Part shown: piece after piece, positions 1,719 through 20,208 of the stretch | Layout of the letters: every line of letters begins with the position of its first letter | Position numbering within the stretch: the stretch's first letter is position 1 | Assembly (NCBI GenBank): GCA_963772655.1 | Contig: CAVYYE010000003.1 | Location: forward strand, 2,865,341-2,888,863 | Length of the DNA: 23,523 bases | Direction of reading: 5' to 3' | From: an uncultured delta proteobacterium | Lineage (GTDB): Bacteria; Myxococcota_A; Polyangia; Haliangiales; Haliangiaceae | Position numbers and translations under genes: made by a program | Notes under the pieces: model-generated | What the model was told of the DNA's origin: nothing | The model's database searches: none | Seen by the model: only the letters and a program-made list of their open reading frames with translations

Positions 1719-2396
1719 TCAGCCCGCGTACCGGGTCGGATCGGGCACACCGGCCTCGGCGAACCCCTTCCGGCGCAGCGCACAGGCGTCGCACCGCCCG
1801 CACGCGCGACCGTCGATCGGGTCGTAGCAGGAGTGGGTGATCGCGTAGTCGACCCCGAGCGAGAGGCCGAGCTCGATGATCTGGGCCTTGGTGAGGTCGA
1901 TCAGCGGGGCGTGGATCCGGACGTTGCCACGTCGGGTCGCCACCCGCGCGAGCGCCTCGAACGCGGCCACGAACTCCGGGCGGCAGTCGGGGTACCCGCT
2001 GGCGTCGAGCACGTTGACGCCGAGGAAGATGTCGCCGGCATCGAGCGTCTCGGCCCACGCGAGCGCGAGCCCGAGGAGCACCGTGTTGCGCGCGGGCACG
2101 TAGGTCGCCGGCACGTCGCCGTCCGCGCCAATCTCCGCCAGCCCGCGGTCCTTGGGCACGGCGATCGACGGTGTGGTCAGCGCGGAATCGGCCAGGGCCG
2201 AGAGCTCGACCCCGACCACGCGATGCTGGTGCGCACCGAGCGCGGCCGCGACCCGGGCCGCGGCGTCGAGCTCGACCTGGTGGAGCTGGCCGTACCGCAC
2301 GGTCAGCGCGTGGCAATCGAAGCCGCGCGACCGCGCGACGGCGAGGGCCGTCGTCGAATCGAGACCACCGGAGAGAAGGACTACCGCGCTCGGCAC
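1719..2396 (-). CDS. queC: 7-cyano-7-deazaguanine synthase QueC
   Basis: 225 aa with a GTG start at 2396 (cac on the + strand). PP-loop motif [12 protein letters not shown], and a C-terminal Cys cluster [10 protein letters not shown] that fits the zinc site. Full-length similarity to QueC as recalled. Confidence 0.9.
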
Positions 2397-2452
2397 GCCC
2401 CGAGCCTACCCGAACGCGGTGCGGGGGGCGGGCCCGCGGTACCGTAGCGATC

Positions 2453-4062: not shown

Positions 4063-4159
4063 CTAGGGGTCAGACACAAGTTGCACAAGTTTGTTGGGGG
4101 GGCAGACCCGCACTCGGTCTGGCACCGCACAAACTTGTGGAACTTGTGTCTGACCCTAG
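4063..4159. repeat. long imperfect inverted repeat; candidate bidirectional terminator or REP/MITE-like element
   Basis: The left arm 4063-4094 (ctaggggtcagacacaagttgcacaagtttgt) is the reverse complement of the right arm 4129-4159 (acaaacttgtggaacttgtgtctgaccctag), with one mismatch and one extra g. The loop carries a nested 6-bp hairpin (cagacc 4103-4108 / ggtctg 4116-4121). The arms are about 50% GC against about 70% background. The outer CTA(G) of each arm is the stop codon of a convergent gene, at 4064-4066 and 4156-4158. Confidence 0.7.
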
Positions 4160-5805
4160 CTGACGTCGGTCTCGGGGACGTCGTCGTCGGGTTTGAGCGC
4201 GGTCGCCTTGGGCAGCGTCGGCTTGGCCATCATCTTCTTGATGATCGGCGCGACCACGAATAGCGCGGCGGAGATCGCCAGCGACGTGATGATCAGCGTC
4301 ATGAACAGGAAGTGGTACCCGTGGCCCTCCGACAGACCGGCGGCACGTCCCGCGAGGTAGTTGCCGACGGCGGTGGCGAGGAACCACGTGCCCATCACCA
4401 TGCCGGCGAGCCGCGGCGGTGCGAGCTTCGACATCGACGATAGCCCGACCGGCGAGATGAACAGCTCCGCGCACGTCGATACGAAATACAGCGCGATCAG
4501 GTACATCGGACTGACGCGGTTGTAGTCGGTGTCGAGCGCGAGATCGTGCACGAACGGGAACTGCGCGAGCGTGTCGAGCGTGTCCTTGCGCTCGGTGATC
4601 GACGCCACCGTCGGCAGCAGCACCACGAACGACAGCGCCGTGAGGATCATGCCGATCGCGAACTTGATGGTCGGCGACGGTTCCTTGCCGGCCTTGGCGA
4701 GCTTGAGCCACATCCACGCGAACGGGCTCGCGAGCACGATGATGAAGAACGCGTTGGGGAACTGGTAGAAGCTGGCCTCGAGGTGGAGCCCGAGGAAGTC
4801 GCGGTGGACCATGTCCTGCGCGTACAGGGACAGCGTGGTGCTGGCCTGCTCGAACACGCCGAAGAACCCGATCGAGCCCAGGAACAGCGGCACGATCGCC
4901 GTGATCCGCTTGCGCTCCTCGGGCGCGACCATCTTGTAGTAGCCGACGAACAGGAGGATCGACGCGATGCCGAGGCCGATCCCGAAGATGTTGCCGATCA
5001 GCTCCTTGTCGAGCGTGATCACGCCGGCGGCGTCGAGCCCCCAGCCGAGCACGATGATGCCGATCAGGCCGCCGATCAGCCCCCACAGCACCGTGCGATC
5101 GCGCGCCGCGCGCCTGGGGTCGCTCGGGATCGTCGGGTGGAGGCCGGTCTCGCCGAGGGCCTTCCAGCCGGCGCGATACTGGATCAGGCCGAGCACCATG
5201 CCGAAGGCGGGCACCGCGAACGCGAACTGCCAGCACCAGTTGGGATCGATGCCGATGTCCGAGAGCAAGCCGCGGAACGTCTCGCTCTGCGCGATCAGCA
5301 TCCCGACGAACGGCGCGAAGAACGCGCCGATGTTGATGCCCATGTAGTAGATCGTGAACCCGGCGTCGCGGCGGATGTCCTTCTCGCCGTAGAGCTGGCC
5401 GACCAGCGTCGAGATGTTGGGCTTGAGAAAGCCGGTGCCGATCGCGATCAGGGCGAGGCCCGGATAGAACGTGGCATCGATCGGCAGCGCGAGACAGAAG
5501 TTGCCGAGCGCGATGCCGACGCCGCCGACCATCACCGCCTTGCGCTGGCCGATGAAGCGATCCGCGATCCAGCCGCCGGGCAGCGACAGCAGGTAGACCG
5601 AGGACATGTAGAGCGCCATCACCAGGCCCATCGACGCGGCCGACATGCCGCGGCCGCCACGCGCGACCGAGGTGACCATGTAGATGGCGAGGAACGTGCG
5701 CGCGCCGTAGTACGACAGGCGCTCCCACATCTCGGTGAAGAACAGCGTCTTGAGGCCGGCCGGATGCCCGAAAAACGCGCGGTCCGGATCCTTCGTGGCT
5801 GACAT
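4156..5805 (-). CDS. POT/PTR2 family proton-dependent di-/tripeptide transporter
   Basis: 549 aa. PTR2 signature 1 is present as GGWIADRFIGQRKAVMVGGVGIALGNF, and signature 2 as YYMGINIGAFFAP. The N-terminal ExxERFxYYG-like motif appears as TEMWERLSYYG. About 14 TM helices. RBS AAGGTG (5814-5819 on the + strand) lies 7 nt from the ATG. Confidence 0.9.
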   Translation of the reverse strand: MSATKDPDRAFFGHPAGLKTLFFTEMWERLSYYGARTFLAIYMVTSVARGGRGMSAASMGLVMALYMSSVYLLSLPGGWIADRFIGQRKAVMVGGVGIALGNFCLALPIDATFYPGLALIAIGTGFLKPNISTLVGQLYGEKDIRRDAGFTIYYMGINIGAFFAPFVGMLIAQSETFRGLLSDIGIDPNWCWQFAFAVPAFGMVLGLIQYRAGWKALGETGLHPTIPSDPRRAARDRTVLWGLIGGLIGIIVLGWGLDAAGVITLDKELIGNIFGIGLGIASILLFVGYYKMVAPEERKRITAIVPLFLGSIGFFGVFEQASTTLSLYAQDMVHRDFLGLHLEASFYQFPNAFFIIVLASPFAWMWLKLAKAGKEPSPTIKFAIGMILTALSFVVLLPTVASITERKDTLDTLAQFPFVHDLALDTDYNRVSPMYLIALYFVSTCAELFISPVGLSSMSKLAPPRLAGMVMGTWFLATAVGNYLAGRAAGLSEGHGYHFLFMTLIITSLAISAALFVVAPIIKKMMAKPTLPKATALKPDDDVPETDVS

Positions 5806-5813
5806 CGCCGCGC

Positions 5814-5819
5814 ACCTTA
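5814..5819 (-). promoter_or_regulatory. Shine-Dalgarno (AAGGTG) for the POT transporter
   Basis: cacctt on the + strand, 7 nt upstream of the ATG at 5805. Confidence 0.5.
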
Positions 5820-5988
5820 ACCGAAGCCCCTTCCGGCGGGAACCCCCTGAAATGACCCCATGACCGGGCGCGGATCGTGTTGCGACACCCCCCGGTCCCA
5901 GGTGCCACGCCGCCGCCTCAATTCTGCGATGAGTGGCCAGCCATCACCGAGGTTGCAAACCCGCTGGGATTGGGAAAGATCCCCGCCC

Positions 5989-8760
5989 ATGAAGTCGAGA
6001 TTCTCGCGGGTGTGGGGACCGGCGGCCATGGCCCTCGCCGTCGTCTCCATGTTGCTGTCGTGCACGCCGGCCGATCCCAAGATCGCGTTCAAGGCCGCCG
6101 AGCGACGCGGGCGACTCGAGAAGAACGGCCTCCGGTTCGTGATCATGCCGGACCCGACGACCGACATGATCGAGGTCGACGTTCGCTACATGGTCGGCTC
6201 GCGCGAAGACCCGCCGGGCAAGGCCGGCCTCGCGCACCTCGTCGAGCACTTGATGTTCCAGCAGCGTCCCGACGGGCCGAACACCAAGCCGCTGATGTCG
6301 TTCATCATGCAGAACGCCGTCAACATGAACGCGTGGACCAAGACCGACGCCACGCACTACATGATCAACGCGCGCAAGGAAGAGCTCGACGCGATGATCA
6401 AGATCGAGGCGATGCGCATGCACTACGGCTGCCAGACGATCTCGGAGGCCGAGTTCGAGCGCGAGCGCGACGTCGTCCGTAACGAGATCCGGCTGCGCGG
6501 CGCGCGCACCCCCGAGGGCCAGATCCCGCGGCTCGTGCTGCAGAACATCTATCCCGAGGGTCACCCGTACCGCGAGGACACCGGCGGCAACGACGAGCAG
6601 ATCGCGCACCTCACGCTCGCCGACGCCTGCCAGTTCATGAAGAACTACTACACGCCCGACCGCGCGGTGCTGATCGTCGCGGGTGGCGTCGAGGTCGATC
6701 CGACGGTCGCGTCGATCGAGAAGTGGTTCTCCGGCGTCGAGAAGCGCACGCCCGCACCGCGCCGGGTGGTGCCGCCGATCCACCTGCAGCGCGAGAAGAA
6801 GGTGATCGACCTCGACATCGAGCGTCCGTACCTCGCGGTCGCGTGGGCGCTGCCCGACGAGACCACCGACGAGGGCGAGCTCGCGCAGTTCGGCGTGTGG
6901 AACGCGTTCTCCGAGGCCGCGATGCTCGGCAACAAGTACAACTGCGCGGTCTCGACGCAGCCGTTTCCCGCCGGTGGCGAGCACGCACCCGCGTTCGTCA
7001 TCCTGATGGAGCTCAAGAGTTACGACAAGGCCGACGAGTGCATCGACCTGATCATGAAGGCGGCCAAGTCGGCACACCGCGGCTACGACATGGTGCCCGA
7101 GCTGCAGGTCGACGAGATCAAGAACCGGCAGAAGGCCCAGTTCATCTCCCGCCTCGAGCCGCTGTTCGGCGGGCGCGGCGAGGTGATGGGCGACCTCGTC
7201 GAGTACACGCACGACTTCGACTTCGACTCCACCGACCTCTACGTGTTCCACCAGCTCGACAAGATCGGGAAGTTCGATCCGGGCAAGATCGGCTCGATCG
7301 TCAACCGCGTGCTCGATCCCGACAAGGCGCACATCGTGCTGTTCAAGCCGTCGAAGGCCGGCTCGCACGGTGACAAGCGCGCCAAGGTCGCGTTCCACGC
7401 CAAGTCGCACGATCAGATGGAGCAGCCCGATGTCGATCCGCGCGAGGCCCACCGGCCGTTCCGGGTCGCGACCGAGCTCAAGAGCCTGCAGGGAGCCGTC
7501 CGCTACCAGCTCGACAACGGCATGAACGTCGTGCTGCTCGCGATCGATTCGTTCCCGGTGATCTCCGCGGAGCTGATCTTCGACGTCGGCGAGTCGGCGA
7601 CTCCCGACAACCCGCAGCTGGCCTCGGCCGCCGCCGACTTCCTGTCGGGTCCGATGGACTCCGAGGCCGTCGGGCGCACCGGCGTCCGCATGGGATGCCG
7701 CGCCACGCCCGATCACACGATCTGCGGTGCGCGCGGCATGAACGTGTACCTCGACGTCGTGGTGAAGGGCCTCGAGCGCCTGATCAAGGCCGGCACCTAC
7801 CACCAGGAGGGGATCGAGAACTGGCAGAAGCGCGTCAAGCTCGCGCTCAAGCTGCGCCGCTCGCAGCAGAAGCTCGAGTTCCAGCGCCAGCAGCTCGCCG
7901 CGATCTTCGGCCCGGATCACGCGTACACCAAGACCGGTGCGCCGGCGCCCGACACGGTCGGCGGCGTCGGTCGCGACAAGCTGAACGACTTCCGCAACAC
8001 GCACTACTCGGCCGCCAACGCGACCCTCGTGATCGCCGGCAGCTTCGATATCGAGAAGGCGAAGTCGCTGATCGGCGGCAGCTTCGGGCACTGGGGCAAG
8101 GGCCACAAGGACGAGCCGGTGGCGGCGACCCCGTACAAGCGCACCGGCCCGGCGTACGTGGGCGTGATCGGCGACGAGGATCCGCAGATGGATCTCGCGA
8201 TCCTCTACCCGTCGCCGGCCGGCATCGACGGCCAGCAGGCCGCGCGCCTCGTGCTCGCGGGGATGGTCAACGATGCGATGTGGGACATCCGCACCAAGCT
8301 CGGAACGACCTACGGCATCTACGCCCGCCGCGACAACCGGCTCGGACCGTCGTTCTACGACATGGGTGGCACCGTCGACGCGCTGCGCGCCGGCGAGTCA
8401 CTCAAGGCGATGCGCGACGGTATCGACGACCTCCGCAAGGGTGGCGTCGACTTCGACACCAAGTTCGTGCGCGCCCGTCGCAAGATCATCCAGCAGCTGC
8501 TCGGCGAATCGACGATGTCGGCATCGCTGGCGCAGCGGCTCGGCCTGATCGCCCAGTACCACCTCGGTCCGAACTACTACAACCAGTTGCTCCAGCAGGT
8601 CGCCGCGGTGTCGCTCGCGCAGGTCAAGGCGCTGCTCGCGACCGAGCTCGATCCCAAGAACGAGGTGGTCGTGGTGCTCGGCGACCGCAATGCGGTGAAC
8701 AAGGCGTTCGAGGTGGCCGGGATCACCGACGTCAAGCTGGTCGAGCCCGACTACAAGTAG
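5989..8760 (+). CDS. M16 (pitrilysin/insulinase) family zinc metallopeptidase, two-module, secreted (probably a lipoprotein)
   Basis: Inverted zinc motif HxxEH (HLVEHL). 923 aa from ATG 5989 with a signal peptide MKSRFSRVWGPAAMALAVVSMLLSC (lipobox-like LLSC). The ORF is open from 5860, and alternative ATGs at 5928 and earlier are less likely because they lack a signal peptide. GGGAAAG sits 11 nt upstream. Confidence 0.85.
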   Translation: MKSRFSRVWGPAAMALAVVSMLLSCTPADPKIAFKAAERRGRLEKNGLRFVIMPDPTTDMIEVDVRYMVGSREDPPGKAGLAHLVEHLMFQQRPDGPNTKPLMSFIMQNAVNMNAWTKTDATHYMINARKEELDAMIKIEAMRMHYGCQTISEAEFERERDVVRNEIRLRGARTPEGQIPRLVLQNIYPEGHPYREDTGGNDEQIAHLTLADACQFMKNYYTPDRAVLIVAGGVEVDPTVASIEKWFSGVEKRTPAPRRVVPPIHLQREKKVIDLDIERPYLAVAWALPDETTDEGELAQFGVWNAFSEAAMLGNKYNCAVSTQPFPAGGEHAPAFVILMELKSYDKADECIDLIMKAAKSAHRGYDMVPELQVDEIKNRQKAQFISRLEPLFGGRGEVMGDLVEYTHDFDFDSTDLYVFHQLDKIGKFDPGKIGSIVNRVLDPDKAHIVLFKPSKAGSHGDKRAKVAFHAKSHDQMEQPDVDPREAHRPFRVATELKSLQGAVRYQLDNGMNVVLLAIDSFPVISAELIFDVGESATPDNPQLASAAADFLSGPMDSEAVGRTGVRMGCRATPDHTICGARGMNVYLDVVVKGLERLIKAGTYHQEGIENWQKRVKLALKLRRSQQKLEFQRQQLAAIFGPDHAYTKTGAPAPDTVGGVGRDKLNDFRNTHYSAANATLVIAGSFDIEKAKSLIGGSFGHWGKGHKDEPVAATPYKRTGPAYVGVIGDEDPQMDLAILYPSPAGIDGQQAARLVLAGMVNDAMWDIRTKLGTTYGIYARRDNRLGPSFYDMGGTVDALRAGESLKAMRDGIDDLRKGGVDFDTKFVRARRKIIQQLLGESTMSASLAQRLGLIAQYHLGPNYYNQLLQQVAAVSLAQVKALLATELDPKNEVVVVLGDRNAVNKAFEVAGITDVKLVEPDYK

Positions 8761-9948
8761 TCACGACGCCGCGACGCACGCGCGCACCAGCTTCATGTAG
8801 TGGTGCCACTTCCAGTGGCGCCCCGGATCGCTGTGATGCGAGACCCCGCCGCAGGCTCCCGCCGCGGCACGGGCATCGCTGCACAGCCGGTGCGAGGCCA
8901 GGTTCGACGGGATGTTGCCGTGGCCGAAGATGTGTTTGCGATCGACGGGGATGTGGTGCTTGACCGCGATCGCGCAGGTCAGCGCCGCCGACGCGCGGTA
9001 CTGGGTGTCGACGTAGTAGCCGCCGCCCTTCGCGCGATGCGCGAACCCCTCGTGCTCGATCCCGATCGAGTGACGGTTGAACCAGCCGTGGCCCGCATGC
9101 CACGCGTTGTCGCCCTCGTGGACCATCTGCACGATGTGGCCGTCGCGGGCGCGCACGATGTAGTGCGCCGAGGCCTGGCTCGCCGACGACTTGAACACGT
9201 GGATCGCACCCGCCATCGTGCCTTCGATGTCGTGGACGACGACGTAGCGGATCGCGTAGCCGAGGCGGCTCGAGTGATTGGGCGACGCGATCCACTGGCG
9301 CTTCGGATACTTGCCGGGCACCGGCAGCGCCTCGAGCGCGATCGCGTGCGGCCCCGGGTCGGCGGCGAGCGTCAGGTGCTCGCCGTCGGAGGTCGTCAGA
9401 TCGAAGCCGTCGGCGATCGTGGCATCGAGATCGTCGAGGGCGAACCCGGCCGCGTCGGCGTCCCCGTCGAGGCCGAGCAGCGACACCGTGGCGGTGCGTA
9501 GGTCGGTATCGTCGCGCGCGTCGGCGAGCAGCGCGGCCGCGGCGGCGGCGTTGGCATCGAGCCGGTTCTCGATGTCGGCCGGCGCATCGCCGGTGAGCTC
9601 GGACGCCCGCGCGATCTGCGCGTCCGTCAGATACATGAGGCCGTGGGCGTTGGTGTCGTCGACGTCGGCGCCGCCGACCGCCGCGGCGTCGTCGAGCGTG
9701 CCGTCGGTCTCGTCGACCTCGGTGTCGGCCGCGAGGGCATCGCCGTCGTCGGACTCGGCCGGGGCATCGACGGTCGCGACCGTGCCGGCGAGCTCGAACC
9801 GTCCGCGTTCGTACGCGATCGCGAGCAGCCACGGCTCGGGGATCGCGTAGGCGGTCGCGGCCTCGTGGATCGCCGACGCACGGGTCGCTTCGGAAGGTGG
9901 CGCCGCACACGCGGCGAGACTCAGGCAGACCAGGATTCGAAACCTCAC
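8761..9948 (-). CDS. N-acetylmuramoyl-L-alanine amidase (Amidase_2/PGRP family) lipoprotein with an acidic disordered N-region
   Basis: GTG start at 9948, preceded by a perfect AGGAGG (9952-9957 on the + strand, 5-nt spacer). Signal peptide plus lipobox LSLAAC. The C-terminal domain (YVVVHDIEGTM...HAGHGWFNRHSIGIEHEG...HIFGHGNIP) carries zinc-binding His residues typical of Amidase_2. The stop abuts the M16 stop with zero gap. Confidence 0.85.
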   Translation of the reverse strand: MRFRILVCLSLAACAAPPSEATRASAIHEAATAYAIPEPWLLAIAYERGRFELAGTVATVDAPAESDDGDALAADTEVDETDGTLDDAAAVGGADVDDTNAHGLMYLTDAQIARASELTGDAPADIENRLDANAAAAAALLADARDDTDLRTATVSLLGLDGDADAAGFALDDLDATIADGFDLTTSDGEHLTLAADPGPHAIALEALPVPGKYPKRQWIASPNHSSRLGYAIRYVVVHDIEGTMAGAIHVFKSSASQASAHYIVRARDGHIVQMVHEGDNAWHAGHGWFNRHSIGIEHEGFAHRAKGGGYYVDTQYRASAALTCAIAVKHHIPVDRKHIFGHGNIPSNLASHRLCSDARAAAGACGGVSHHSDPGRHWKWHHYMKLVRACVAAS

Positions 9949-9951
9949 GAC

Positions 9952-9957: not shown

Positions 9958-11793
9958 CTAACGGAACCGAAGGGTCTGGTGATGCATCCGCGCGATCAGC
10001 TGGGCGTACGAGTACGCCGACGGCGGTGCCATGTCCGACTTGTTGACGAAGTAGTAACCGACGCCGTGCTGCTGCCGCAGGCGCTTGCTGCCGTGCCGGA
10101 TCGCGTTGACCTCGCGCCGGATCGCGGCGAGGTCGTGGCTCGGTTGATCGAGGTAGCGGTACTGCGGATAGATCGAGTGCATGCTCGTGCCGAGCACGCT
10201 GATCGCGCGCAGGTTGATGCCGCCGCCGTACTTCATGCCCCGGGTCGAGCGGGCGAGGCGAGCGGCGGCGGTCCGTAGCGTCGACGGTGCCGCGCCCGCC
10301 ATCACCTGCGCCGTGTGCAGGTAGACCTCGAGCGCGATCCCGCGGCCGCGCCGCTTGAGGGCACGCATCAGGTACCGACGATCGCGCAGCCGCTGGGCGC
10401 CGCCGGCGTACTGCGTGAGATCGATGCTGACGTACCCGATCACGGTGCGCGGCGGCAGCCGGAGCAGCAGCTTGCGAAACCGGTGGTTGAGCGCGTGGCC
10501 GTCGGCCCAGTCGGCGGCCGCCGTGATCTCGTCGACGACGATGTAGTCGTAGCCGCTGGCGAGCTTGGCGCGCAGATACGCCGCGGTGCGCTCGACGCCG
10601 TTGGGCCGCGCGAGCAGCTCGCGCAACTTGTCGCCGTTGCGATCGAGCACGAACGCGGTGCGCCCGCCGCGCTCGTGGTTGGCCGGGTTCTTCATCCGGC
10701 CGTGCGGTCCGCTCTCGCGCTTCTCCCCGACGATGACCTCGCCGGGACAGCCACCGAGGAACTGCTCGGTCTCGTCGGCGCCCGGGCTCGCGTACAGCAG
10801 GAACCAGGGCGAGTGCTTGGTGACGTGGCAGGTCGCGGCGTAGAGCGCCGGCGCATCGGCCGGTTCCGGATCGCCGAGGCCCGGCGGCCACACGTACCCG
10901 AGCGTGCCGGCGACCGTGTAGCCGTCGCCGGTCAGGGTCTCGATGGTCTCGGGCGAGGTCTCGTAGACGCGGCAGCCGTCGGGCGCGATCAGCTCGACGA
11001 ACGCGGCCGTCCCGTCGCCGTCGTCGGACCGTGCCCAGCCGAGGAGCTCGGTGCCGTCGCCGGGCGTCGCGGTCAGGCGATCGCCGCAGGCGTCCGCGTC
11101 CGCGCGCAGGATCGGGACGTCGCCGGTTCGCTCGAGCGCGAACTGCGCGGTCGGTTGCCCGGTGTCGGCGGCGAGCGGCTGATGCGCGAGCACGAAGCGC
11201 GCCCCGATCCCGTCGGACCGTGCGGCGGAGAACACGTCGATCCGTGCGACCGCCGACGGCGTCGGACCGTCGTTCGCCAGCTCGTCCCAGTCGGCCGCGG
11301 CGTCGGTCGCGCACGACGCCGCGAGCGCCAGCACGACGAGAGATTGCCGCCGCCGCCGGATCGCGATCGCGATCAGCAGCACGACCGCGAGTCCGACGAT
11401 CGCGCCCGGCGCCGCGGTGGTCGCGCAGCCGCCGAGGTCGACCGCGTCGAGGTCGCCCGGCATGCATCGCCCACCGTCGAGCACGGCGCCGTCGGGGCAC
11501 GACACCGCCGCCGCGTCGACCGCCCAGTCGATCGGATCGTCCGGCACCGCCGCCGCATCCTCGTCGGCCTCGAGCGTCGCGTCCGCCGACTCCGGCAGAC
11601 AGCCCGCGCCCGGCAACGTGCACTCGTCGACGTCCCAGTCGACGCTGCACTCGTCGTCGCACGCGCACCCCGCGTCGCACGCCGCCGCGTGTTGGTTGCA
11701 CGTGCACGCCTGGTGATCGTCGATCTGCGCATCGGCGTTGGAGGCCGACGCGACGATCATCCACGTGACGAACCAGATCTTCCAGACGTGCAT
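9958..11793 (-). CDS. secreted Cys-rich/MYXO-CTERM-like N-module fused in frame to a glycoside-hydrolase-like (TIM-barrel) lipoprotein-like module
   Basis: ATG at 11793 with a signal peptide MHVWKIWFVTWMIVASASNA. A Cys-rich stretch (CTCNQHAAACDAGCACDDEC...) is followed by GGCATTAAPGAIVGLAVVLLIAIAIRRRRQ, which matches the MYXO-CTERM pattern (Cys, hydrophobic stretch, RRRR). A lipobox-like LVVLALAASC comes next with no intervening stop or Met. The C-terminal roughly 330 aa (GYDYIVVDEI..GYVSIDLT..EVYLHT..YYFVN) looks like a GH114/GHL-type TIM barrel, though the family is uncertain. The ORF is open upstream to 12108, but that extension lacks a signal peptide. Confidence 0.6.
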   Translation of the reverse strand: MHVWKIWFVTWMIVASASNADAQIDDHQACTCNQHAAACDAGCACDDECSVDWDVDECTLPGAGCLPESADATLEADEDAAAVPDDPIDWAVDAAAVSCPDGAVLDGGRCMPGDLDAVDLGGCATTAAPGAIVGLAVVLLIAIAIRRRRQSLVVLALAASCATDAAADWDELANDGPTPSAVARIDVFSAARSDGIGARFVLAHQPLAADTGQPTAQFALERTGDVPILRADADACGDRLTATPGDGTELLGWARSDDGDGTAAFVELIAPDGCRVYETSPETIETLTGDGYTVAGTLGYVWPPGLGDPEPADAPALYAATCHVTKHSPWFLLYASPGADETEQFLGGCPGEVIVGEKRESGPHGRMKNPANHERGGRTAFVLDRNGDKLRELLARPNGVERTAAYLRAKLASGYDYIVVDEITAAADWADGHALNHRFRKLLLRLPPRTVIGYVSIDLTQYAGGAQRLRDRRYLMRALKRRGRGIALEVYLHTAQVMAGAAPSTLRTAAARLARSTRGMKYGGGINLRAISVLGTSMHSIYPQYRYLDQPSHDLAAIRREVNAIRHGSKRLRQQHGVGYYFVNKSDMAPPSAYSYAQLIARMHHQTLRFR

Positions 11794-11872
11794 GTTCGGG
11801 CCGAAGAGCACCTCGCGTGCCGAGACTCGTCGCAGGCTCGCCGACAATGGTTTGGTCTGGTTGCCGGCGTTC

Positions 11873-11892
11873 GATCGCCCATGATCGCCCAT
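11873..11892. repeat. perfect tandem duplication of the 10-mer gatcgcccat, x2
   Basis: Read directly from the sequence. It lies in the divergent promoter region between 11793 (- gene) and 12048 (+ gene). Confidence 0.8.
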
Positions 11893-12047
11893 GACAGGTC
11901 CTGAACCTCCCCGGTGAGACGTGTCAGTTGCGCAGTGATGTCCACGGTTTGGCGAGCTGAGCCGGCGTCGATTGCGCGTACCGACCAGATCTCGCGGCGC
12001 TCGCCGCACGCCGCGGGGAGGCACGTCGGTTGCCTGTCGGCGAGCGC

Positions 12048-13001
12048 ATGACGATCTCCCGTTTCGCTGTGCTCGCCGTGCTGCTGGGTTCGATGACCGG
12101 TTGCGCACTCGACGATCCCGCCACCGACGACACCACCGACGATCCGGGTGTGTTCGAGGTCCAGACCACCGGCACCCTCCGCGGCGTCGATCGCGCGGGC
12201 GCGTTCTCGACGCGCGAGGCCAAGCGTCTCGCCCACCGTCACGCCGTGCGGTGGACCGGCGTCTACATCGGCGGTGCGTGCAACGCCGGCTACGGCTGGA
12301 GCAAGCACCGGGTGCGCGTGCTGCACGATGCGGTCGGCTGGCGGTTCCTGCCGATCTGGGTCGGACAACAGACCTCGAACATCTGCCGCCATCACCGCCT
12401 GACGTACGCGCGCGGGCTCGCCGACGGCAAGGCCGCCGTCAAGCGCATGCGTGCGTTCGGGTGGCATCCGCATCGCGAGATCCCGATCGCGCTCGACGTC
12501 GAGGGCGGCACCTACGCGTCCGCGCACCACCCGTCGACGGCCTACACCCGTGGCTGGGTCAAGTCGGTCCGCGCCGCCGGGTATCGTGCCTACGTCTACT
12601 CGAGCGAGCTCGCCGTCGAGCACTACCACGATCGCCACATCCCGCTCGACGGCGTGTGGGTCGCGAGCTGGTACTACACGAGCTTTCACGCCGCCGATCC
12701 GTCGCAGCTCTCGCTCGGCCAGCGGTATCGCCACCACGATCGGGCGTGGCAGTACGCGGGCGACTTCACGGTGACCGGGGTCGGCCGCGTCGATGGCAAC
12801 GTCTCCGATCTGCTGCTCGCGCCCGGGCCCGGCGGCACCAACGTGGAGCCCGGCACCTCGCCGCGCACGCTCGATGCCGAACCGCTGACGATCGATGACG
12901 AGGCCGCGGCGTTCGACGAGCTCGCCCTCGAGCCCGCCGACGACCCGGGTTCGCTCGACGACCTAGGTTCGCTCGACGACAGCGGCGACCTCGACGAGTG
13001 A
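12048..13001 (+). CDS. DUF1906 (Rv2525c-like, GH25-like glycoside-hydrolase fold) lipoprotein with an acidic C-terminal tail
   Basis: ATG at 12048. MTISRFAVLAVLLGSMTGC is a signal peptide plus lipobox-like TGC. WTGVYIGG..VGWRFLPIWVGQQ...IPIALDVE...AYVYSS..WVASW resembles Rv2525c-like domains. The tail DDPGSLDDLGSLDDSGDLDE is encoded by an imperfect 18-bp tandem (ggttcgctcgacgac x2). The ORF is open from 12030 (M at 12030 unlikely). Confidence 0.6.
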   Translation: MTISRFAVLAVLLGSMTGCALDDPATDDTTDDPGVFEVQTTGTLRGVDRAGAFSTREAKRLAHRHAVRWTGVYIGGACNAGYGWSKHRVRVLHDAVGWRFLPIWVGQQTSNICRHHRLTYARGLADGKAAVKRMRAFGWHPHREIPIALDVEGGTYASAHHPSTAYTRGWVKSVRAAGYRAYVYSSELAVEHYHDRHIPLDGVWVASWYYTSFHAADPSQLSLGQRYRHHDRAWQYAGDFTVTGVGRVDGNVSDLLLAPGPGGTNVEPGTSPRTLDAEPLTIDDEAAAFDELALEPADDPGSLDDLGSLDDSGDLDE

Positions 13002-13177
13002 GCCCAACCGCGACACACATGTCGCGCTCGAACGCACCACCGCGTCGCGGTGCGCCTTCCTCCGTCACCTGCTCGGCTCCGGTCACGCGTGTCCGTAGTC
13101 CTGGCGTAACCTTCGAGTTGTCGTCGTCGTGGCAGTTGTTCGCGCGACGAGCCACCGACTCGGATAGACTCGATGTG

Positions 13178-14320
13178 ATGGGGTGGCGACTCGCGGTTAT
13201 GAGTTGTCTCGTTGGCTGCTACTCGCCACGAGGCCCGGCAGGTGCGCCCTGTGGTCCCGCGGGAGAGTGTCCGAGCGGTCAGGCCTGCGTGACCCAGACC
13301 GGAGTGTGCCAACCGATCGGGACCTCGGTCGATCCCGATGCGAGTGATGCGCCGGTGTCTCCACCCGACGGTGCGAGCGACTGGTGGGATCTCGCCTGGA
13401 CCCACCGCCGCGCGATCGACGTCGTCGCCGGCGATAACGGCACCCCGGCGCGCTACTCGCTGTCGATCACGTTCGATCACGACACGCTCGTCGATACCGG
13501 CGAGGCGCTGGCATCCGGAGACGACGTCCGGATCGTGCGCGCCGACGGCGTCGAGGTCGAGCGCGTGCTCGACTCGGGCTCGGACTGGCGCTCGCCGACG
13601 ACGACCGTGTGGTTCGCCCACGAGCCGGCGCTCGCCGACAACGCTGCCGTTCGCTACTACCTCTACTACGGCAATCCGAGCGCCGGAGCGCCACCCGAGA
13701 ACGCGTCGAAGGTGTTCCTGCTCGCCGACGGGTTCGAGGGCACGCTGTCGCAGTGGTTCGCCGATGCGAGCGTCGGTCGTACGACCTCGCGCGCCCATAG
13801 CGGCACCCACGCGGTCCGCGTCCCGCCGCAGGACCAGACCGGGGTCGGGATCTCGGCGATGGACATCGACGAACGCGATGTCGTGCTCGATGCGTGGTGG
13901 AACCTCGAGGTCGCACTCGGTGCCGACGTCTCGATGGGCATTCGCGAGAACGCGACCTCGGTGTACTTCACCGACCTCCAGCAGATCGATGCCGGTCAGC
14001 CTTCGGTGTGGGACATCTCGAAGTTCGAGAGCGACACCTACACCGAGCTGGTACCGGCGCCGCCGGGCGCTCCCGGCGCGGCCGACGACACCTGGACCCG
14101 GGTGACGATCTACGCGTATCGCCACTCGATGGCGCTCGACATCGACGGCCAGCGCTACGTGCCGGAGTCGGGGTTCGCGACCGTCGACGCCGACCTGTCG
14201 GGCACGGTCGGCATGGGCGCGTACTTGACGACCGGCGACACGTTCTTCGACGACGTGACGCTGCGGCGGTTCGTGCTGCCCGAGCCGACGGTCACGCTCG
14301 GTCCCGACGAGACCCCGTAG
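13178..14320 (+). CDS. DUF2341 domain + LamG/concanavalin-like domain lipoprotein
   Basis: ATG at 13178 follows a lower-GC 175-bp intergenic region. MGWRLAVMSCLVGC is a short signal peptide plus lipobox. WWDLAWTHRRAIDV...YSLSITFDHDTLV...GDDVRIV..VWFAHEPALADNAAVRYYLYYGNP matches the DUF2341 consensus (WW..W.YR..I.I...FP...GDD..F...W..VP.L...YMYYGN). A DGFEG...W start to a LamG-like module follows. Confidence 0.65.
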   Translation: MGWRLAVMSCLVGCYSPRGPAGAPCGPAGECPSGQACVTQTGVCQPIGTSVDPDASDAPVSPPDGASDWWDLAWTHRRAIDVVAGDNGTPARYSLSITFDHDTLVDTGEALASGDDVRIVRADGVEVERVLDSGSDWRSPTTTVWFAHEPALADNAAVRYYLYYGNPSAGAPPENASKVFLLADGFEGTLSQWFADASVGRTTSRAHSGTHAVRVPPQDQTGVGISAMDIDERDVVLDAWWNLEVALGADVSMGIRENATSVYFTDLQQIDAGQPSVWDISKFESDTYTELVPAPPGAPGAADDTWTRVTIYAYRHSMALDIDGQRYVPESGFATVDADLSGTVGMGAYLTTGDTFFDDVTLRRFVLPEPTVTLGPDETP

Positions 14321-14348: not shown

Positions 14349-15890
14349 CTACTCGATCGTCGCCACGTGGCGCATCACCACGCGGCCGCTGGCGTCGACC
14401 AGCTTGAGGCCACCGCGGCGCGTGCCGATCAGGGTGTACGCGGTGCCGTCGACGTCGAGCGACGTGCCGTCGGCTGCGGTCACCCGCGAGGCGCCGAGCG
14501 TCGCGAGCGACATCGCCTGGTGGTGGCCGAGCGAGATCGCCGCGCCGCGCACGGTGACGGTGGTCGGAGCGACGCGCGCCATCGCGGTCGAGGTGTCGCG
14601 CGCCGGCGGCGCGTTCCACGCGATCGGGTGATCGTGGGCGATCACGACGGTCGCCGGCGCGGTGGCGATCGCGTCGATCTGGCTGACGAAGCCCTCGAGG
14701 GCCGGCATCTCGGCGAGCCAGCTGGTGGCGCCGGTCGCGGGATCGATCTTGACCATCGAGCGCGACGACAACAGGTCGGTGCCCTCGTTGGTGCCGTCGT
14801 TGTTACCGGTGGTCGAGTTATCGAACGAGCCGACGATCACGCCCTGGATGCTCGCCATCGCGTTGGGCATGAACGACTGGTTGGCGAACACGCCGTAGTC
14901 GAGCGCCGCGATCGTGGTCTCTGCGCCGGTCGTGGTGTCCACCGAGTTGAGGTCCATCGTGCCGGCGTTGACGTTGAGATTCGCCGCCAGCAGGTTGTTG
15001 TTGTCGTCGAACACCATGCCGCCGCCGAACGCGAACCCGTTCGTGGCCACCGGCGTGACCGCCGCCGTGGTCGGGTCGATCGTGACCAGTCCGGCGATGC
15101 CCGAGTGGCCGTACAGCGTCGCGCCGTCGAACTTGATGTCGGCGATGTGGTGCTCGTTGTTGCCGTCGGTCAGCGTGCCGATCACCGTCACCTTCGCGGT
15201 CTGCGGGTCGACCGTGACCAGCTGCGAGGTCTTCGTGAGCCCCGCGGCCGTGGTGCCGAACAGCGTGCCGTTGCCGTCGAACGCGAGGCCGGTGAGGCCG
15301 TACGTCGTGTTGGCGTCGGTGGCGTCGGTGAGGATGTCGATCACGCCCCAGAACCCGTTGGTCGGATCGATCAGGTAGAGGAAGCCGTTGTCGAGGCCGC
15401 GGCCATCGGCGGCGTAGATCGCGAGGTACTCGAACGACGTCGTGACGCTGCCCTTGTCGGTGGTCACCGTGACCGTGGTGTCGATCGACACGCCCGGCGG
15501 GATCACGCCGGCGATCCGGTTCGGCGTCACCGCGGCGATCGTCGCGGCCTGGTCGCCGAACTTCACGGTGACGTTGCCGGCGCCCTGACCGGCGAAGTTG
15601 GTGCCGTCGATCGCGAACACCGTGCCGCCCGAGATCCCGGCCGCGCCCGGCGTGATCGCCGTGATCGTCGGAATGCCGACGTCGTCCTGACCGTCGGGAA
15701 CGCACTCGCCGTTGGCCTCGTGCGTGCCGGTGCCGCAGGTCAGCCCGTCGGGCGGCGGGGTGCCATCGGGCACGCACACCCCGTCCATCTCCACCGTTCC
15801 CGTACCGCACGTGATCGTCGTGCCCGCGGGGTCAGATCCACCACACGACACCAACGGGAGACAGAGCAGCGTGAGGAGGACTCGCTTCAT
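14349..15890 (-). CDS. lipoprotein with an IPT/TIG domain and beta-propeller-like repeats
   Basis: ATG at 15890. MKRVLLTLLCLPLVSC is a signal peptide plus lipobox LVSC. The TIG-like segment is ITAITPGAAGISGGTVFAIDGTNFAG...VTVKFGDQAATIAAVTPNRIAGVIPPG. The motif L(V/Y)xIDPxTG recurs four times, which suggests propeller blades. Confidence 0.7.
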   Translation of the reverse strand: MKRVLLTLLCLPLVSCGGSDPAGTTITCGTGTVEMDGVCVPDGTPPPDGLTCGTGTHEANGECVPDGQDDVGIPTITAITPGAAGISGGTVFAIDGTNFAGQGAGNVTVKFGDQAATIAAVTPNRIAGVIPPGVSIDTTVTVTTDKGSVTTSFEYLAIYAADGRGLDNGFLYLIDPTNGFWGVIDILTDATDANTTYGLTGLAFDGNGTLFGTTAAGLTKTSQLVTVDPQTAKVTVIGTLTDGNNEHHIADIKFDGATLYGHSGIAGLVTIDPTTAAVTPVATNGFAFGGGMVFDDNNNLLAANLNVNAGTMDLNSVDTTTGAETTIAALDYGVFANQSFMPNAMASIQGVIVGSFDNSTTGNNDGTNEGTDLLSSRSMVKIDPATGATSWLAEMPALEGFVSQIDAIATAPATVVIAHDHPIAWNAPPARDTSTAMARVAPTTVTVRGAAISLGHHQAMSLATLGASRVTAADGTSLDVDGTAYTLIGTRRGGLKLVDASGRVVMRHVATIE

Positions 15891-15966
15891 GAGCTGCCTA
15901 CACCACGTTTCGGGCGGTTCGCACAAGATCGAATTCGCGCCAGGCATGTTGCCGGCGTGAGCCGAG

Positions 15967-16320
15967 TTACGTTTCGGCCGAGATCGGTGCCGACAACAGG
16001 TCGACCCAGACGTCACCGTCGACGATCGTCACCCGGTAGCGCCGCAGGGTCAGCGTCGGATCGTGCTCGCACGCACCGGTGCGCAGGTCGAACACGTAGC
16101 TGTGACCGGGACACGTCAGCTCGCAGCCGACCAGCTTGCCGCCGGCGAGCTCGACGTCCTCGTGCGGGCACACGCCGGGGGTCGCGACGATGTCGCCGGC
16201 CTCGCCATCGTCGCCTTCCAGGCGCACGACGAGCACCGGCCACGTGACGCCCTCGACCGCGAACGCGCGCGGCTGGTCGCCGACGTCGGTCACGCTGCAC
16301 ACGCGCACGCGCAGCGCCAT
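15967..16320 (-). CDS. small Rieske [2Fe-2S] domain protein (NirD-like ferredoxin)
   Basis: 117 aa. The Rieske ligand motifs CPH (CxH) and CPGH (CxxH) are separated by 16 residues: CPHEDVELAGGKLVGCELTCPGHSYVFDLRTGAC. Its ATG overlaps the upstream permease stop as ATGA at 16317-16320. Confidence 0.8.
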   Translation of the reverse strand: MALRVRVCSVTDVGDQPRAFAVEGVTWPVLVVRLEGDDGEAGDIVATPGVCPHEDVELAGGKLVGCELTCPGHSYVFDLRTGACEHDPTLTLRRYRVTIVDGDVWVDLLSAPISAET

Positions 16321-17216
16321 CACCGCCTCCCGCGTTGTCGCGGATCCGACCAGTCGCGAAGACCGTCGCCGAGCAGGTTGGCGCCGAGCACGACCCACAT
16401 GATCGCGAGGCCGGGAACCAGCGCGTAGAGCTCGACCCAGTCGGTCTTCCACAAGAACGTGCGCGCCTGGTCGAGCATCGCGCCCCACGCGTAGTCGGTG
16501 TGCGTGCCGAGGCCGAGGAAGCTGAGCGTCGCCTCGACGAGGATCACCGCCGCGAACCCGAACGACATCTGCACGAGCGCCGGACCCATCAGGTTCGGCA
16601 CCAGGTGGCGCCACATCACGCGCACGTTCGAGGCGCCGAGCGCGACGGTGGCGGTCACGTAGTCGCGTTCGCGCAGCGCGAGCACCTGGCCGCGGGCGAC
16701 GCGCGCGTAGCCGACCCAGCCGTTGGCGATCAGGGCCGCGATCAGGATCCCGAGCCCCGGGCGATCGACGGTCGCGACGATCGCGATGTTGAGCAAGATG
16801 CCGGGAAACGCCATCAGCACGTCGACGATCCGCATCACGATCTCGTCGACGATGCCGCGATACCAGCCGGCGATCGTGCCGAGTGCGAGGCCGATCGTGG
16901 CCGACACGCCGACGACGATCGAGCTGATCACCAGCGCCGAGCGCGCGCCCCACAGCAGCTGGCTCAGCGTGTCCTGGCCGCGGCTGTCGGTGCCGAGCCA
17001 GTGCGCGCCGCTGATGCCCTCGAACCGGCTGGACAGATCGATCGCGGTCGCGCTCGACACGTCGTGCGGTGCGATCCACGGCCCCAGCACGCCGGCGATC
17101 ACGAATACCGCGAGCATCACCGCGCCGATGCGTCCCGACCAGCCGAGCTGGCGGATGCCGGCGAACGCGCCCCGAAGTGCGCGCCCCGCTTGCAGTGCGA
17201 TCCGGATCGCCTTCAT
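16320..17216 (-). CDS. ABC transporter permease, DppC/OppC-like (BPD_transp_1)
   Basis: 298 aa from ATG 17216 with 6 TM segments. The N-terminal region ([30 protein letters not shown]) and conserved permease-loop region ([22 protein letters not shown]) are typical of OppC/DppC. There is an ATGA overlap with the upstream permease at 17213-17216. The ORF is open from 17984, but that extension is antisense garbage. Confidence 0.85.
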
Positions 17217-18148
17217 CCGCGACGGATCCTCGGATCGGCGAGCCCGTACGCCAGATCGACCAGCATGTTGACCACCACGTAGATCACCGCGATCACGAAC
17301 ACGGTGCCCTGCACCACGGGGTAGTTGCGCTCGGAGATCGCGTCGACCAGCGTGGTGCCGAGCCCCGGGCGCGAGAACACGTTCTCGATCACGACCGCGC
17401 CCGACAGCATCGAGCCGAACTGCAACCCGGCGATCGTGATCACCGGCAACAGCGCGTTGCGCAGCGCGTGGACGAACAGCACGCGGCGCTCGGGGACGCC
17501 CTTCGCGCGTGCGGTACGCACGAAGTCCTCGCCGAGCACGTCGACCATCGACGTCCGCGTCATCCGGGCCAGCATCGCCATCAGGTGGGTGCCGACGGCG
17601 ATCGCCGGCAAGATCAGCGCCGCCGGGCCGGTCTCCGTCGGGCCCGGCAGCCAGCCGAGCACGATGAAGAAGATCATGAGGAGCAGCGGCGCGAACATCA
17701 TCTGCGGGATCGCGATCCCGGCGAGCGAGGTCGTGGTCGCCAGCGTGTCGATCCAGGTGCCGCGCTTGATCGCCGCCAGGATCCCGAGCGGCAGCGCGAG
17801 CACGATCGCCACCAGCATCCCGGCGATCGCGAGCTCGAGCGTGTACGGGAACACCTCGCCGATCCGGGTCGCGACGTCGGGGCGGCCCTTCGCCTTCGGG
17901 CACTGGTGACCGAGCGAGCCGTCGACGATGTGGCCCATGAACGCCACGAACTGCGCGGGCAGCGGGCGATCGAGCCCCATGCACTCCTCGATCTTCTGGC
18001 GCTGCTCGGGGGTCGCCTCGCCGCCCGCCAGGTGATCGACCGGATCGCCCGGCACGATGTGCAGGAACGCGAACGTCAGGATCGAGACCCCGAGGATCGC
18101 GATCAACCCGGAGCCGAGCCGTCTGAGCAAGAAGCCCGCGATCGACAC
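17213..18148 (-). CDS. ABC transporter permease, DppB/OppB-like
   Basis: 311 aa with a GTG start at 18148. The N-terminus [36 protein letters not shown] is the canonical DppB/OppB start. The EAA-like loop appears as [26 protein letters not shown]. Confidence 0.85.
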
Positions 18149-18193
18149 GACGGCGAGCCTACCAGGACGGGATCGCGACTTCGCGACCCGGAG

Positions 18194-18773: not shown

Positions 18774-19226
18774 ATGCGAGCCGTGGTCCAGCGAGTCACC
18801 CGCGCCGAGGTCCGTGTCGACGGCCAGCCGACCGGCACGATCGCCGGCGGGCTGCTCGTCCTGCTCGGGGCCGGGGCGGGCGACACCGCCGCCGACCTGG
18901 CGTACATCGTCGACAAGGTCACCAACCTGCGGATCTTCGCCGACGACGCCGGCAAGATGAACCGGAGCGTGCTCGACGTCGGCGGGGGCGTGCTCGTGGT
19001 GTCCCAGTTCACGCTCTACGGCGACGCTCGCCAGGGACGCCGGCCGTCGTTCATCGGGGCGCTCGAGCCGGCGGCCGCGAAGGCCCTGTACGAGCAATCC
19101 CTCGACGCGTTCCGTGCCGCCGGGGTCGCCCGCGTCGAGGCCGGGCAGTTCGCCGCCGACATGGCGGTCGAGCTGGTCAACGACGGCCCGGTGACGATCC
19201 TTCTAGATTCGCGCAAGCGGTTCTAG
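18774..19226 (+). CDS. dtd: D-aminoacyl-tRNA deacylase
   Basis: 150 aa. MRAVVQRVTRAEVRVDGQ...GLLVLLG...NLRIF.D..GKMN.SV.DVGG.VLVVSQFTL....GRRPSF...ELVNDGPVTILLDS has the Dtd hallmarks, including the SQFTL and NDGPVT motifs. Confidence 0.9.
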   Translation: MRAVVQRVTRAEVRVDGQPTGTIAGGLLVLLGAGAGDTAADLAYIVDKVTNLRIFADDAGKMNRSVLDVGGGVLVVSQFTLYGDARQGRRPSFIGALEPAAAKALYEQSLDAFRAAGVARVEAGQFAADMAVELVNDGPVTILLDSRKRF

Positions 19227-19278
19227 CTATAGGAGAACGAGAGCGTTAGGGTCCGCTGGCAGGTCAAGCCCACGTCAC

Positions 19279-20208
19279 ATGAAGGTCAGGTTCTGGGGAG
19301 TTCGCGGTTCCATCCCCGTACCCGGTCGGGCGACCAGCCGGTACGGTGGAAACACGTCGTGCGTCGAGGTGCGGCCCAAGGGCGCGTCGCCGATCATCAT
19401 CGATGCGGGCACCGGGCTCCGGCGGCTGGGCAAGTCGTTGACGCAGGAGGCGTTCGGCGAGGGTAAGGGCACCACGACGATCCTGATCAGCCACACGCAC
19501 TGGGATCACGTGCAGGGCCTGCCGTTCTTCTCGCCGCTGTACCGCGCCGGCAACGCCGTCCACATCTTCGCCCGCCAGCGCGACACCCACCTCGAGGCGG
19601 TGTTCAGCCAGCAGCACGAGCTGCCGTACTTCCCGGTGCCGCTGTCGGCGATGCGCGCGGACATGTACTTCCACGAGCTCATCGAGGGCGCGCGGTTCGA
19701 CGTCGGCAAGGCCACGGTCACCACCGCGCGGCTCAACCATCCGTGGATCGCGATGGCCTACCGGATCGATGTCGATCGCGCGTCGGTCGTGTACTGCGCC
19801 GACACCGCGCCGTTCACCGACATCCTGTTCGGGCGCGAGTTCATGACCACGCCGCCCCGGCTCGATCAGGATCTGCCGCCGGAGGTCGTCGACGAGCTCG
19901 CCAAGATGCGCGCCGCCGTGGTCGCGCTCGCGAAGAACGCCGACCTCCTGATCTACGACACCCAGTTCACGATCGACGAGTACCGGCTGCGCCCGCACTG
20001 GGGACACTCGCATCCCGACGACGCGATCCAGATCGCGCGCGATGCCGGCGCCAAGCGGCTGTGCCTGTTCCACCACGCGCCGACGCGGTCCGACGACGAC
20101 AACGACGCGATCCTCGCCAAGTACCGCGAGGTCGTGACCGCGCAGCACGACAAGTTCGAGCTGATGAGTGCCTACGAGGGACTCGAGATTCCCCTGGGGG
20201 ACGAATGA
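19279..20208 (+). CDS. MBL-fold metallo-hydrolase (copy 1)
   Basis: 309 aa. MKVRFWGVRGSIPVPG..YGGNTSCVEV at the N-terminus and the metal-binding motif HTHWDH. Intact. Confidence 0.8.
   Translation: MKVRFWGVRGSIPVPGRATSRYGGNTSCVEVRPKGASPIIIDAGTGLRRLGKSLTQEAFGEGKGTTTILISHTHWDHVQGLPFFSPLYRAGNAVHIFARQRDTHLEAVFSQQHELPYFPVPLSAMRADMYFHELIEGARFDVGKATVTTARLNHPWIAMAYRIDVDRASVVYCADTAPFTDILFGREFMTTPPRLDQDLPPEVVDELAKMRAAVVALAKNADLLIYDTQFTIDEYRLRPHWGHSHPDDAIQIARDAGAKRLCLFHHAPTRSDDDNDAILAKYREVVTAQHDKFELMSAYEGLEIPLGDE

Follow-up and report, generated by a model that had tools for sequence, protein, structure and literature searches.

The DNA analysed here, a stretch of 23,523 nucleotides from an uncultured myxobacterial genome (contig CAVYYE010000003.1; hereafter the window), carries on its minus strand a gene in which two envelope-targeting signals meet in the middle of a single protein. 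The gene is one open reading frame (ORF) at 9958–11793, encoding 611 amino acids (aa) from MHVWKIW followed by a stop codon. A Cys-rich secreted module ends in a sorting signal of the MYXO-CTERM type, and the Arg cluster of this signal runs directly into the hydrophobic region and lipobox of a lipoprotein signal, with a further 450 residues of beta-rich and barrel domains downstream. The first-pass annotation of this DNA had drawn attention to the region 11290–11500, corresponding to residues ~99–168, and the sequence it described is confirmed on the minus strand. The features of the gene are as follows.

9958..11793, minus strand: whole gene, a 611-aa precursor (ORF and translation; database protein P0001 is 100% identical)
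11734..11793, minus strand: probable N-terminal Sec-type signal peptide, residues 1 to ~20 (hydrophobic, A-x-A-like sites conserved; judged by inspection)
11434..11733, minus strand: Cys-rich acidic N-module, residues ~21–120 (40-sequence alignment)
11425..11433, minus strand: G121-G122-C123 with the MYXO-CTERM-like signature Cys (GGC in 81/84 homologs; inside the TIGR03901 match)
11359..11415, minus strand: first hydrophobic helix, residues 127–145, proposed stop-transfer segment (uncharged run; AlphaFold2 (AF2) helix 130–146)
11347..11358, minus strand: R146–R149, Arg cluster common to both signals (3–5 R/K in 84/84 homologs; codons CGG x4)
11311..11346, minus strand: Q150–S160 h-region and lipobox A-A-S-C161, proposed Lgt/LspA site (Cys in 84/84 homologs)
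10888..11244, minus strand: middle beta-rich domain, residues ~184–302, divergent DUF5648-like (AF2 strands with predicted local distance difference test scores (pLDDT) >90; profile matches)
9961..10836, minus strand: C-terminal (beta/alpha)8 barrel, residues ~320–611, of GH18-like fold and an uncharacterised family
10528..10551, minus strand: Y415-D416-Y417-I-V-V-D421-E422 acidic motif with candidate catalytic residues (invariant alignment columns; AF2 strand 417–423)

The mid-chain order of residues is G121-G122-C123-ATTA-APGAIVGLAVVLLIAIAI-R146RRR149-Q150-SLVVLALAAS-C161-ATDAAADWD. Four small residues separate C123 from the 17-aa hydrophobic helix APGAIVGLAVVLLIAIAI, and C161 is followed directly by a polar stretch, ATDAAADWD. 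The RRRR cluster is succeeded by 461 residues in the window protein and is likewise not C-terminal in ~85 homologs; the lipobox is equally far from its usual place, its Cys being residue 161 rather than lying at roughly residues 15–35 from an N-terminus. The database gene model P0001 (644 aa) begins 33 codons further 5', at MGDHGRS (window 11794–11892, minus strand). The MHVWKIW start (11793) is aligned with the N-termini of most of the 40 homologs; from this start, the probable signal peptide forms the actual N-terminus.

Searching 5.8 billion proteins, we obtained 103 homologs. About 90 are 550–650 aa long and cover 91–100% of the query at 43–67% identity; the named sources are Kofleriaceae, Polyangia or 'Deltaproteobacteria' metagenome-assembled genomes (MAGs). 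Counts of signal features given here refer to the 84 homologs that cover the two-signal region, and statements on single positions to an alignment (A1) of 40 sequences. The same uninterrupted ORF with both signal cysteines is present in ~85 homologs from independent assemblies of Kofleriaceae, Haliangiales and Polyangia. At the DNA level it is uninterrupted in all seven loci that we read—the window and six MAG contigs labelled Haliangiales, Kofleriaceae, Myxococcales or Polyangia—and the gene callers of ENA, JGI and Logan independently predict one gene of ~600 aa. An assembly problem at the locus is rejected, since the ORF recurs across independent assemblies and gene callers. Within the alignment C161 is invariant and G121, G122, C123, R148, R149, W169 and D170 are at least 90% conserved, while the hydrophobic residues between the signature positions vary freely; the conserved positions of this variable region are those that define the two signals. 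One homolog, P0095, has lost the middle domain and kept GC-helix-RRARRR-LLLASC. Because the spacing, the 3–5 R/K and the lipobox are conserved in 84 homologs, the tandem signal is more than a chance arrangement, and a regular expression for the tandem motif, run in all six reading frames over ~135 kb of related DNA of high G+C content, retrieves this family only. A 43-sequence profile of the hairpin region found no significant match to other families among the 5.8 billion proteins, a search that is uninformative because the profile is too short for a database of that size.

The first signal is, by its sequence, of the MYXO-CTERM type, as the hidden Markov models (HMMs) of this tail pass their cutoffs. 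The NCBIfam model TIGR03901 matches residues 121–149 and gives 20.2 bits on the full protein against a cutoff of 20, so that the MYXO-CTERM-type tail proposed by the first-pass annotation is borne out, if marginally. The score is 22.8 bits on residues 1–150 and 24.2 bits on the 49-aa segment ending at RRRR, and on the latter the second MYXO-CTERM model, TIGR03382, gives 18.1 bits against its cutoff of 15.85. Corresponding segments of the family are matched by TIGR03901 in 47 of 84 members (E≤0.01) and by TIGR03382 in 37. The tripartite design is complete in the window protein, with GGC, the 17-aa hydrophobic helix and R146–R149, and it is steady across homologs: GGC is kept in 81 of them, the C123 equivalent lies 19.8 ± 1.8 aa from the basic cluster, the first helix has a mean uncharged run of 17.9 aa, and 3–5 R/K form the cluster in every one. 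The position is the exception, for MYXO-CTERM signals normally lie at the extreme C-terminus and this one sits mid-chain.

The stretch after RRRR makes up the h-region and lipobox of a lipoprotein signal that lacks a Met or n-region of its own, as had been described in the first-pass annotation. In the window the lipobox reads L-A-A-S-C161, and the RRRR directly upstream supplies the positive charges. The lipobox Cys is present in 84/84 homologs, preceded at position -1 by A (69), S (8) or G (7) and at -3 by L, I, A, F or V. We compared the stretch with the core of the PS51257 pattern, {DERK}(6)-[LIVMFWSTAG](2)-[LIVMFYSTAGCQ]-[AGS]-C; the window protein passes, as do 17 of the 84 family members, and 81 pass when three rather than six uncharged residues are demanded. 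The distance from the last R/K to the lipobox Cys is 7–9 residues in 64 of the 84 members and 11 in the window, and an acidic residue (D/E) occurs 3–5 positions after the Cys across the family. Apparent insertion energies, computed crudely with a simple additive hydrophobicity scale over the best 19-residue segment, average +10.0 kcal/mol after the basic cluster, never fall below zero there and stand at +7.9 kcal/mol in the window protein, against a mean of +2.1 kcal/mol for the first helix. Given the 7–9 residues and the mean of +10.0 kcal/mol, the second stretch has the length of a signal-peptide h-region and falls short of what a stable membrane helix requires.

Relatives that consist of the barrel alone point to the source of this second signal. 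P0098, P0099 (MKARSLRSLLLVTTLGAAAAC), P0100 and P0107 begin with ordinary N-terminal lipoprotein signals, the more distant barrel-only relatives P0138–P0170 (e.g. P0141, P0149, P0154) have N-terminal lipoprotein signals too, and a Sandaracinaceae ORF in locus L007 (MEARTWTMWVLLAVGC) is a stand-alone barrel with such a signal. The simplest account of the lipobox in the fused family is therefore that the signal of an ancestral lipoprotein has been retained. An exhaustive HMMER search of 1.84 billion representative proteins brought up no relative in which the N-module stands alone, so there is direct support for only half of the idea that two ancestral genes have joined. The fusion suggested in the first-pass annotation is thus plausible as an ancient event, in view of the stand-alone lipoprotein barrels, and fails as a recent event at this locus, in view of the ~85 homologs. 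Most probably the layout goes back to an old fusion between a MYXO-CTERM gene and the lipoprotein gene downstream of it, and selection has since maintained it.

The N-module upstream of the signals contains ten Cys within residues 30–113 of the window protein, a conserved motif DWxxDEC...GC and an invariant E78, and shows little regular structure in the AF2 model. Six of the Cys form a cluster, CxCxxxxxxCDxxCxCDxEC (residues 30–50, window 11644–11706, minus strand), that about half of the homologs possess and the others lack entirely; homologous N-modules mostly have 10 or 4 Cys, and the six-Cys cluster behaves as an insertable mini-module. E78 (window 11560–11562, minus strand) lies with L74 and A80, both at least 90% conserved, in a short helix within an otherwise variable acidic linker, a pattern that suggests a specific contact. 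In a subclade represented by the contig-truncated homologs P0074 and P0086 a lipobox closes the N-terminal signal too (MFRAMLVCIVVCAVGC-TDD and MIRWALLLCVLASAC-VDD), and the N-module there might be lipid-anchored at both ends. The AF2 run, made with the 40-sequence alignment, has a mean pLDDT of 85.5 and a predicted template modelling score (pTM) of 0.84, exceeding a pLDDT of 90 from about residue 180 on. Docking of the N-module on the enzyme domain was considered and rejected as a conclusion: residues 1–161 modelled alone have similar local pLDDT (81–90 for residues 71–110) with a pTM of 0.28, and because the local values are alike without the enzyme domain, the confidence of the full model is uninformative on contact between the domains. 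Cysteine counts are even in the N-module of 78 of 79 homologs and in the C-terminal part of 77 of 79, which leaves C123 and C161 as the two unpaired cysteines.

Family-profile positions ~197–298 match proteins that Pfam calls DUF5648. The Pfam DUF5648 model misses the divergent middle domain of the window protein (10888–11244, minus strand). P0137, a distant barrel homolog, has a recognisable DUF5648 after the barrel, and the two domains thus seem to associate repeatedly. The barrel has no Pfam or NCBIfam match at E≤10, and Foldseek against the PDB finds generic TIM-barrel matches only. Its (beta/alpha)8 fold is superposable on GH18 structures, while identity with GH18 endo-beta-N-acetylglucosaminidases and chitinases is 8–15%, the Pfam model Glyco_hydro_18 does not match, and the acidic motif is D416-x4-D421-E422 and not DxxDxDxE. 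The 'GH-like TIM barrel' of the first-pass annotation is accordingly a fair description of the fold, whereas membership of GH18 is not demonstrated. D416, D421 and E422 of YDYIVVDE are candidate catalytic residues.

A MYXO-CTERM helix runs from the periplasm to the cytoplasm and ends there in its Arg cluster; a lipoprotein signal has its positive charges at a cytoplasmic start and leads outward from there. Placed head to tail, the two would share one Arg cluster and bring both cysteines to the periplasmic face. The RRRR would then do double duty, being the cytoplasmic tail in the first signal and the positively charged n-region in the second. The Cys-rich module would be exported through Sec by the N-terminal signal peptide until the first helix halts transfer and leaves RRRR in the cytoplasm. 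The short second hydrophobic stretch would then restart export of the 450-aa DUF5648-like and GH18-like part, so that the chain passes through a transient hairpin whose two cysteines, C123 and C161, lie on the periplasmic side. Lgt could lipidate C161 and LspA cut before it, so that C161 becomes the first residue of a mature, N-terminally acylated lipoprotein and putative enzyme. On the other side C123 would be lipidated and a myxosortase of the MrtX/MrtC type would cut after it, yielding a C-terminally lipid-anchored module of ~100 aa destined for the surface by the type II secretion route, and the hairpin peptide of ~37 aa would be discarded. A transient hairpin precursor cut in this way at both cysteines, by a myxosortase and by Lgt/LspA, into two lipid-anchored products is the explanation that we favour, with the case for it and the doubts about equally balanced. 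We hold a little more tentatively the wider notion of an envelope 'polyprotein', in which one Sec precursor is split by a myxosortase upstream and by Lgt/LspA downstream, at adjacent cysteines and around a disposable hairpin, into products made in a 1:1 ratio. Published work on the system reports that MrtX cleaves MYXO-CTERM in a Cys-dependent manner, names Lgt as the leading candidate for MYXO-CTERM lipidation, states that sorting tags work mid-protein with reference to LPXTG and an archaeosortase substrate, and describes myxosortase and MYXO-CTERM as phylum-wide in Myxococcota (PMC11980579).

Several points weigh against this double processing. The architecture, its conservation, the signal-like properties, the short second segment and the lipoprotein signals of stand-alone relatives are direct observations; from them we infer the topology, lipidation and cleavage at both sites, where the two products end up and the enzyme activity. 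The TIGR03901 score on the full protein is marginal (20.2 against 20), and the model matches 10 of 40 full-length members. The h-region is 2–4 residues shorter than in the stand-alone relatives, where 10–16 residues separate the last R/K from the Cys, and owing to this short h-region only 17 of 84 members pass the strict PS51257 core. No documented case of LspA cleaving an internal signal is known to us, and the literature searched yielded none. Alternatively, the unpaired C123 and C161 could be joined by a disulfide that spans the hairpin.

The most serious alternative, to which we give a clearly smaller but real chance, is that only one of the signals is used. Either Lgt and LspA free the C-terminal lipoprotein and GGC-TM-RRRR, with TM a transmembrane helix, merely anchors the N-module in the inner membrane, or a myxosortase frees the N-module and the enzyme part keeps an uncleaved signal-anchor. 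The topology would be identical to that of the doubly cut precursor, and the atypically short h-region for an LspA substrate, the marginal HMM score and an N-module with neither known function nor stand-alone relatives all fit this alternative. Yet both cysteines are conserved together with their flanking signatures, GG ahead of C123 and a small residue immediately preceding C161. A pure stop-transfer helix has no need of GGC, nor a pure signal-anchor of an invariant Cys with A, S or G at -1, and an uncleaved stretch of 7–9 residues followed by acidic ones would make a poor anchor.

It is unlikely that the precursor persists as a stable, unprocessed two-segment hairpin that keeps its two extracytoplasmic parts attached to the inner membrane, perhaps with a C123–C161 disulfide. 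The two hydrophobic stretches around RRRR agree with the positive-inside rule, AF2 places helices at 130–146 and 151–167, albeit with low confidence, and C123 and C161, the odd cysteines, would lie close together at the periplasmic face. The second stretch, however, does not span a bilayer: the first segment has ~18 uncharged residues and the second mostly 7–9 (64/84; 11 in the window), with D/E within 3–5 residues, and its insertion energy, on the crude scale used, averages +10 kcal/mol and is never negative. A disulfide accounts for neither the GG before the first Cys nor the lipobox before the second, and the homologous position is a real lipoprotein signal in the stand-alone relatives. The helical-hairpin anchor offered in the first-pass annotation is thus right about the topology of the precursor and improbable as its end state, for which a second stretch of 7–9 residues at +10 kcal/mol is ill suited.

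Far less probable again is separate synthesis of the C-terminal lipoprotein from an internal start just before RRRR, the long ORF then covering two overlapping products. A few homologs do have Met right before the cluster, as in ...VFM-RRRKR-LALVVIAAC, which would yield a textbook lipoprotein signal. Against it, no start-like codon is conserved in frame over the 22 codons before the cluster in the seven loci, L002 has none at all in that interval, in the window the only one is a GTG 8 codons upstream, and none of the seven shows a Shine–Dalgarno-like motif. That the join is a local artefact or a recent merger, through the lost stop or start, the indel or the vanished gene boundary that the first-pass annotation envisaged, can practically be dismissed: MYXO-CTERM signals are normally terminal and the Gln150 codon, CAA (11344–11346), is indeed one transition from TAA as had been remarked, but the comparison of ortholog boundaries finds a single ORF with both Cys conserved in ~85 homologs, no stop in the seven loci read as DNA, position 150 occupied by V, A, T, L, W, G, M, S, F and other sense residues, and, among the 84 matches from the 1.84 billion representative proteins, no split ortholog and no protein ending at RRRR, the short matches all being contig fragments or frameshifted calls.

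The surrounding genes include several other putative lipoproteins. An Amidase_2 (N-acetylmuramoyl-L-alanine amidase) lipoprotein gene at 8761–9951 (minus strand; signal VRFRILVCLSLAAC) begins within ~10 nt of the stop of the target gene, and the two are probably co-transcribed in the window; related loci lack this pairing. Upstream and divergent lies a lipoprotein gene at 12030–13001 (plus strand; …LLGSMTGC) with an Rv2525c-like/GH25-like glycoside hydrolase domain and an acidic repeat tail, DDLGSLDDSGDLDE; with the amidase gene it forms a local cluster of putative cell-wall hydrolase lipoproteins. Next come a DUF2341 protein that is a probable lipoprotein (12998–14320, plus strand; MGWRLAVMSCLVGC…) and an IPT/TIG-domain protein, again a probable lipoprotein, with a long Thr/Gly-rich beta region (14349–16028, minus strand; MKRVLLTLLCLPLVSC…). 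The other genes are all housekeeping or unrelated: QueC (1719–2405, minus strand), a POT-family peptide transporter (4156–5943, minus strand), an M16 peptidase (5851–8760, plus strand), an ABC permease (17213–18193, minus strand) and a metallo-beta-lactamase-fold protein (19207–20208, plus strand). The window has 69% G+C, which gives rise to many long spurious ORFs in all frames. No conserved operon context was found when the neighbours (amidase, Rv2525c-like, DUF2341, M16, TIG, POT) were compared by tblastn with loci L001–L007, and the gene neighbourhoods of P0006 and P0028 are unrelated to that of the window. None of the related loci conserves the neighbourhood of the window. At most, it hints weakly at cell-wall or glycan hydrolysis.

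To place the arrangement among known systems, we compared each half with its terminal counterpart. The first signal shares with MYXO-CTERM/MrtX substrates, such as TraA of Myxococcus xanthus, the Gly-Cys signature with its invariant Cys, the transmembrane helix and the Arg cluster, as well as the host phylum Myxococcota, HMM scores above cutoff and, judging by the hydrophobic N-terminus, probably an N-terminal signal peptide. It differs from them in lying mid-chain with its Arg cluster running directly into a second signal, and in having a single Cys as GGC in place of the frequent GCGC. The second signal shares with lipoprotein signals of the signal peptidase II route (PS51257; Lgt/LspA/Lnt) the positive region, the hydrophobic stretch and the lipobox [L/I/A/F/V]-[A/V/I]-[A/S/G]-C, and homologous barrels in other Myxococcota carry the normal N-terminal version. 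Unlike these it is internal, lacks its own Met and n-region, has a shorter h-region and in most members fails the strict pattern. In archaea, a Haloferax volcanii ArtA substrate reportedly has a tripartite sorting structure that is not C-terminal (Abdul Halim et al. 2017, J Bacteriol 199:e00802-16, as cited in PMC11980579), which sets a precedent for processing of such a signal in mid-protein; that protein differs in being archaeal, a Tat substrate and equipped with a PGF-CTERM/archaeosortase signal. The closest bacterial parallel is MXAN_5598 of M. xanthus, where an internal MYXO-CTERM lies between an adhesin region and an outer-membrane beta-barrel/OmpA region; the authors who describe it consider it a fusion of two genes and suggest that its N-terminal part continues to be processed and anchored at the surface (PMC11980579). 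Compared by its published description only, it resembles the present family in the mid-protein MYXO-CTERM, and differs in having other domains, in being a single atypical case and not a conserved family, and in having no lipobox reported directly after the motif. One internal MYXO-CTERM (MXAN_5598) and the internal tags of sortase and archaeosortase substrates are thus already known. A direct MYXO-CTERM–lipobox join or an internal lipobox was not found in the literature searched, nor was a conserved family whose tag passes straight into a lipobox by way of a common Arg cluster; the Haft preprint makes no mention of internal motifs or lipoboxes.

C-terminal sorting tags and N-terminal lipoprotein signals are usually treated as chain-end features, and annotation pipelines consequently label these proteins 'MYXO-CTERM domain-containing' or 'hypothetical'. 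The family also marks an uncharacterised group of GH18-like lipoproteins in Myxococcota. With two substrate cysteines a few residues apart on the same membrane face, it would be a convenient natural system for asking which enzyme lipidates the MYXO-CTERM Cys, a question raised in earlier work (PMC11980579); if the double processing is true, the protein would be a natural substrate for testing Lgt on MYXO-CTERM cysteines and LspA on internal signals. The family implies that sorting tags can stay functional mid-chain over long evolutionary times, and it offers a route by which neighbouring envelope genes may merge with their targeting kept. It further predicts a bacterial precursor that yields two lipid-anchored proteins, which, if the polyprotein notion holds, would be a surface module lipidated at its C-terminus and a glycosidase-like enzyme lipidated at its N-terminus.

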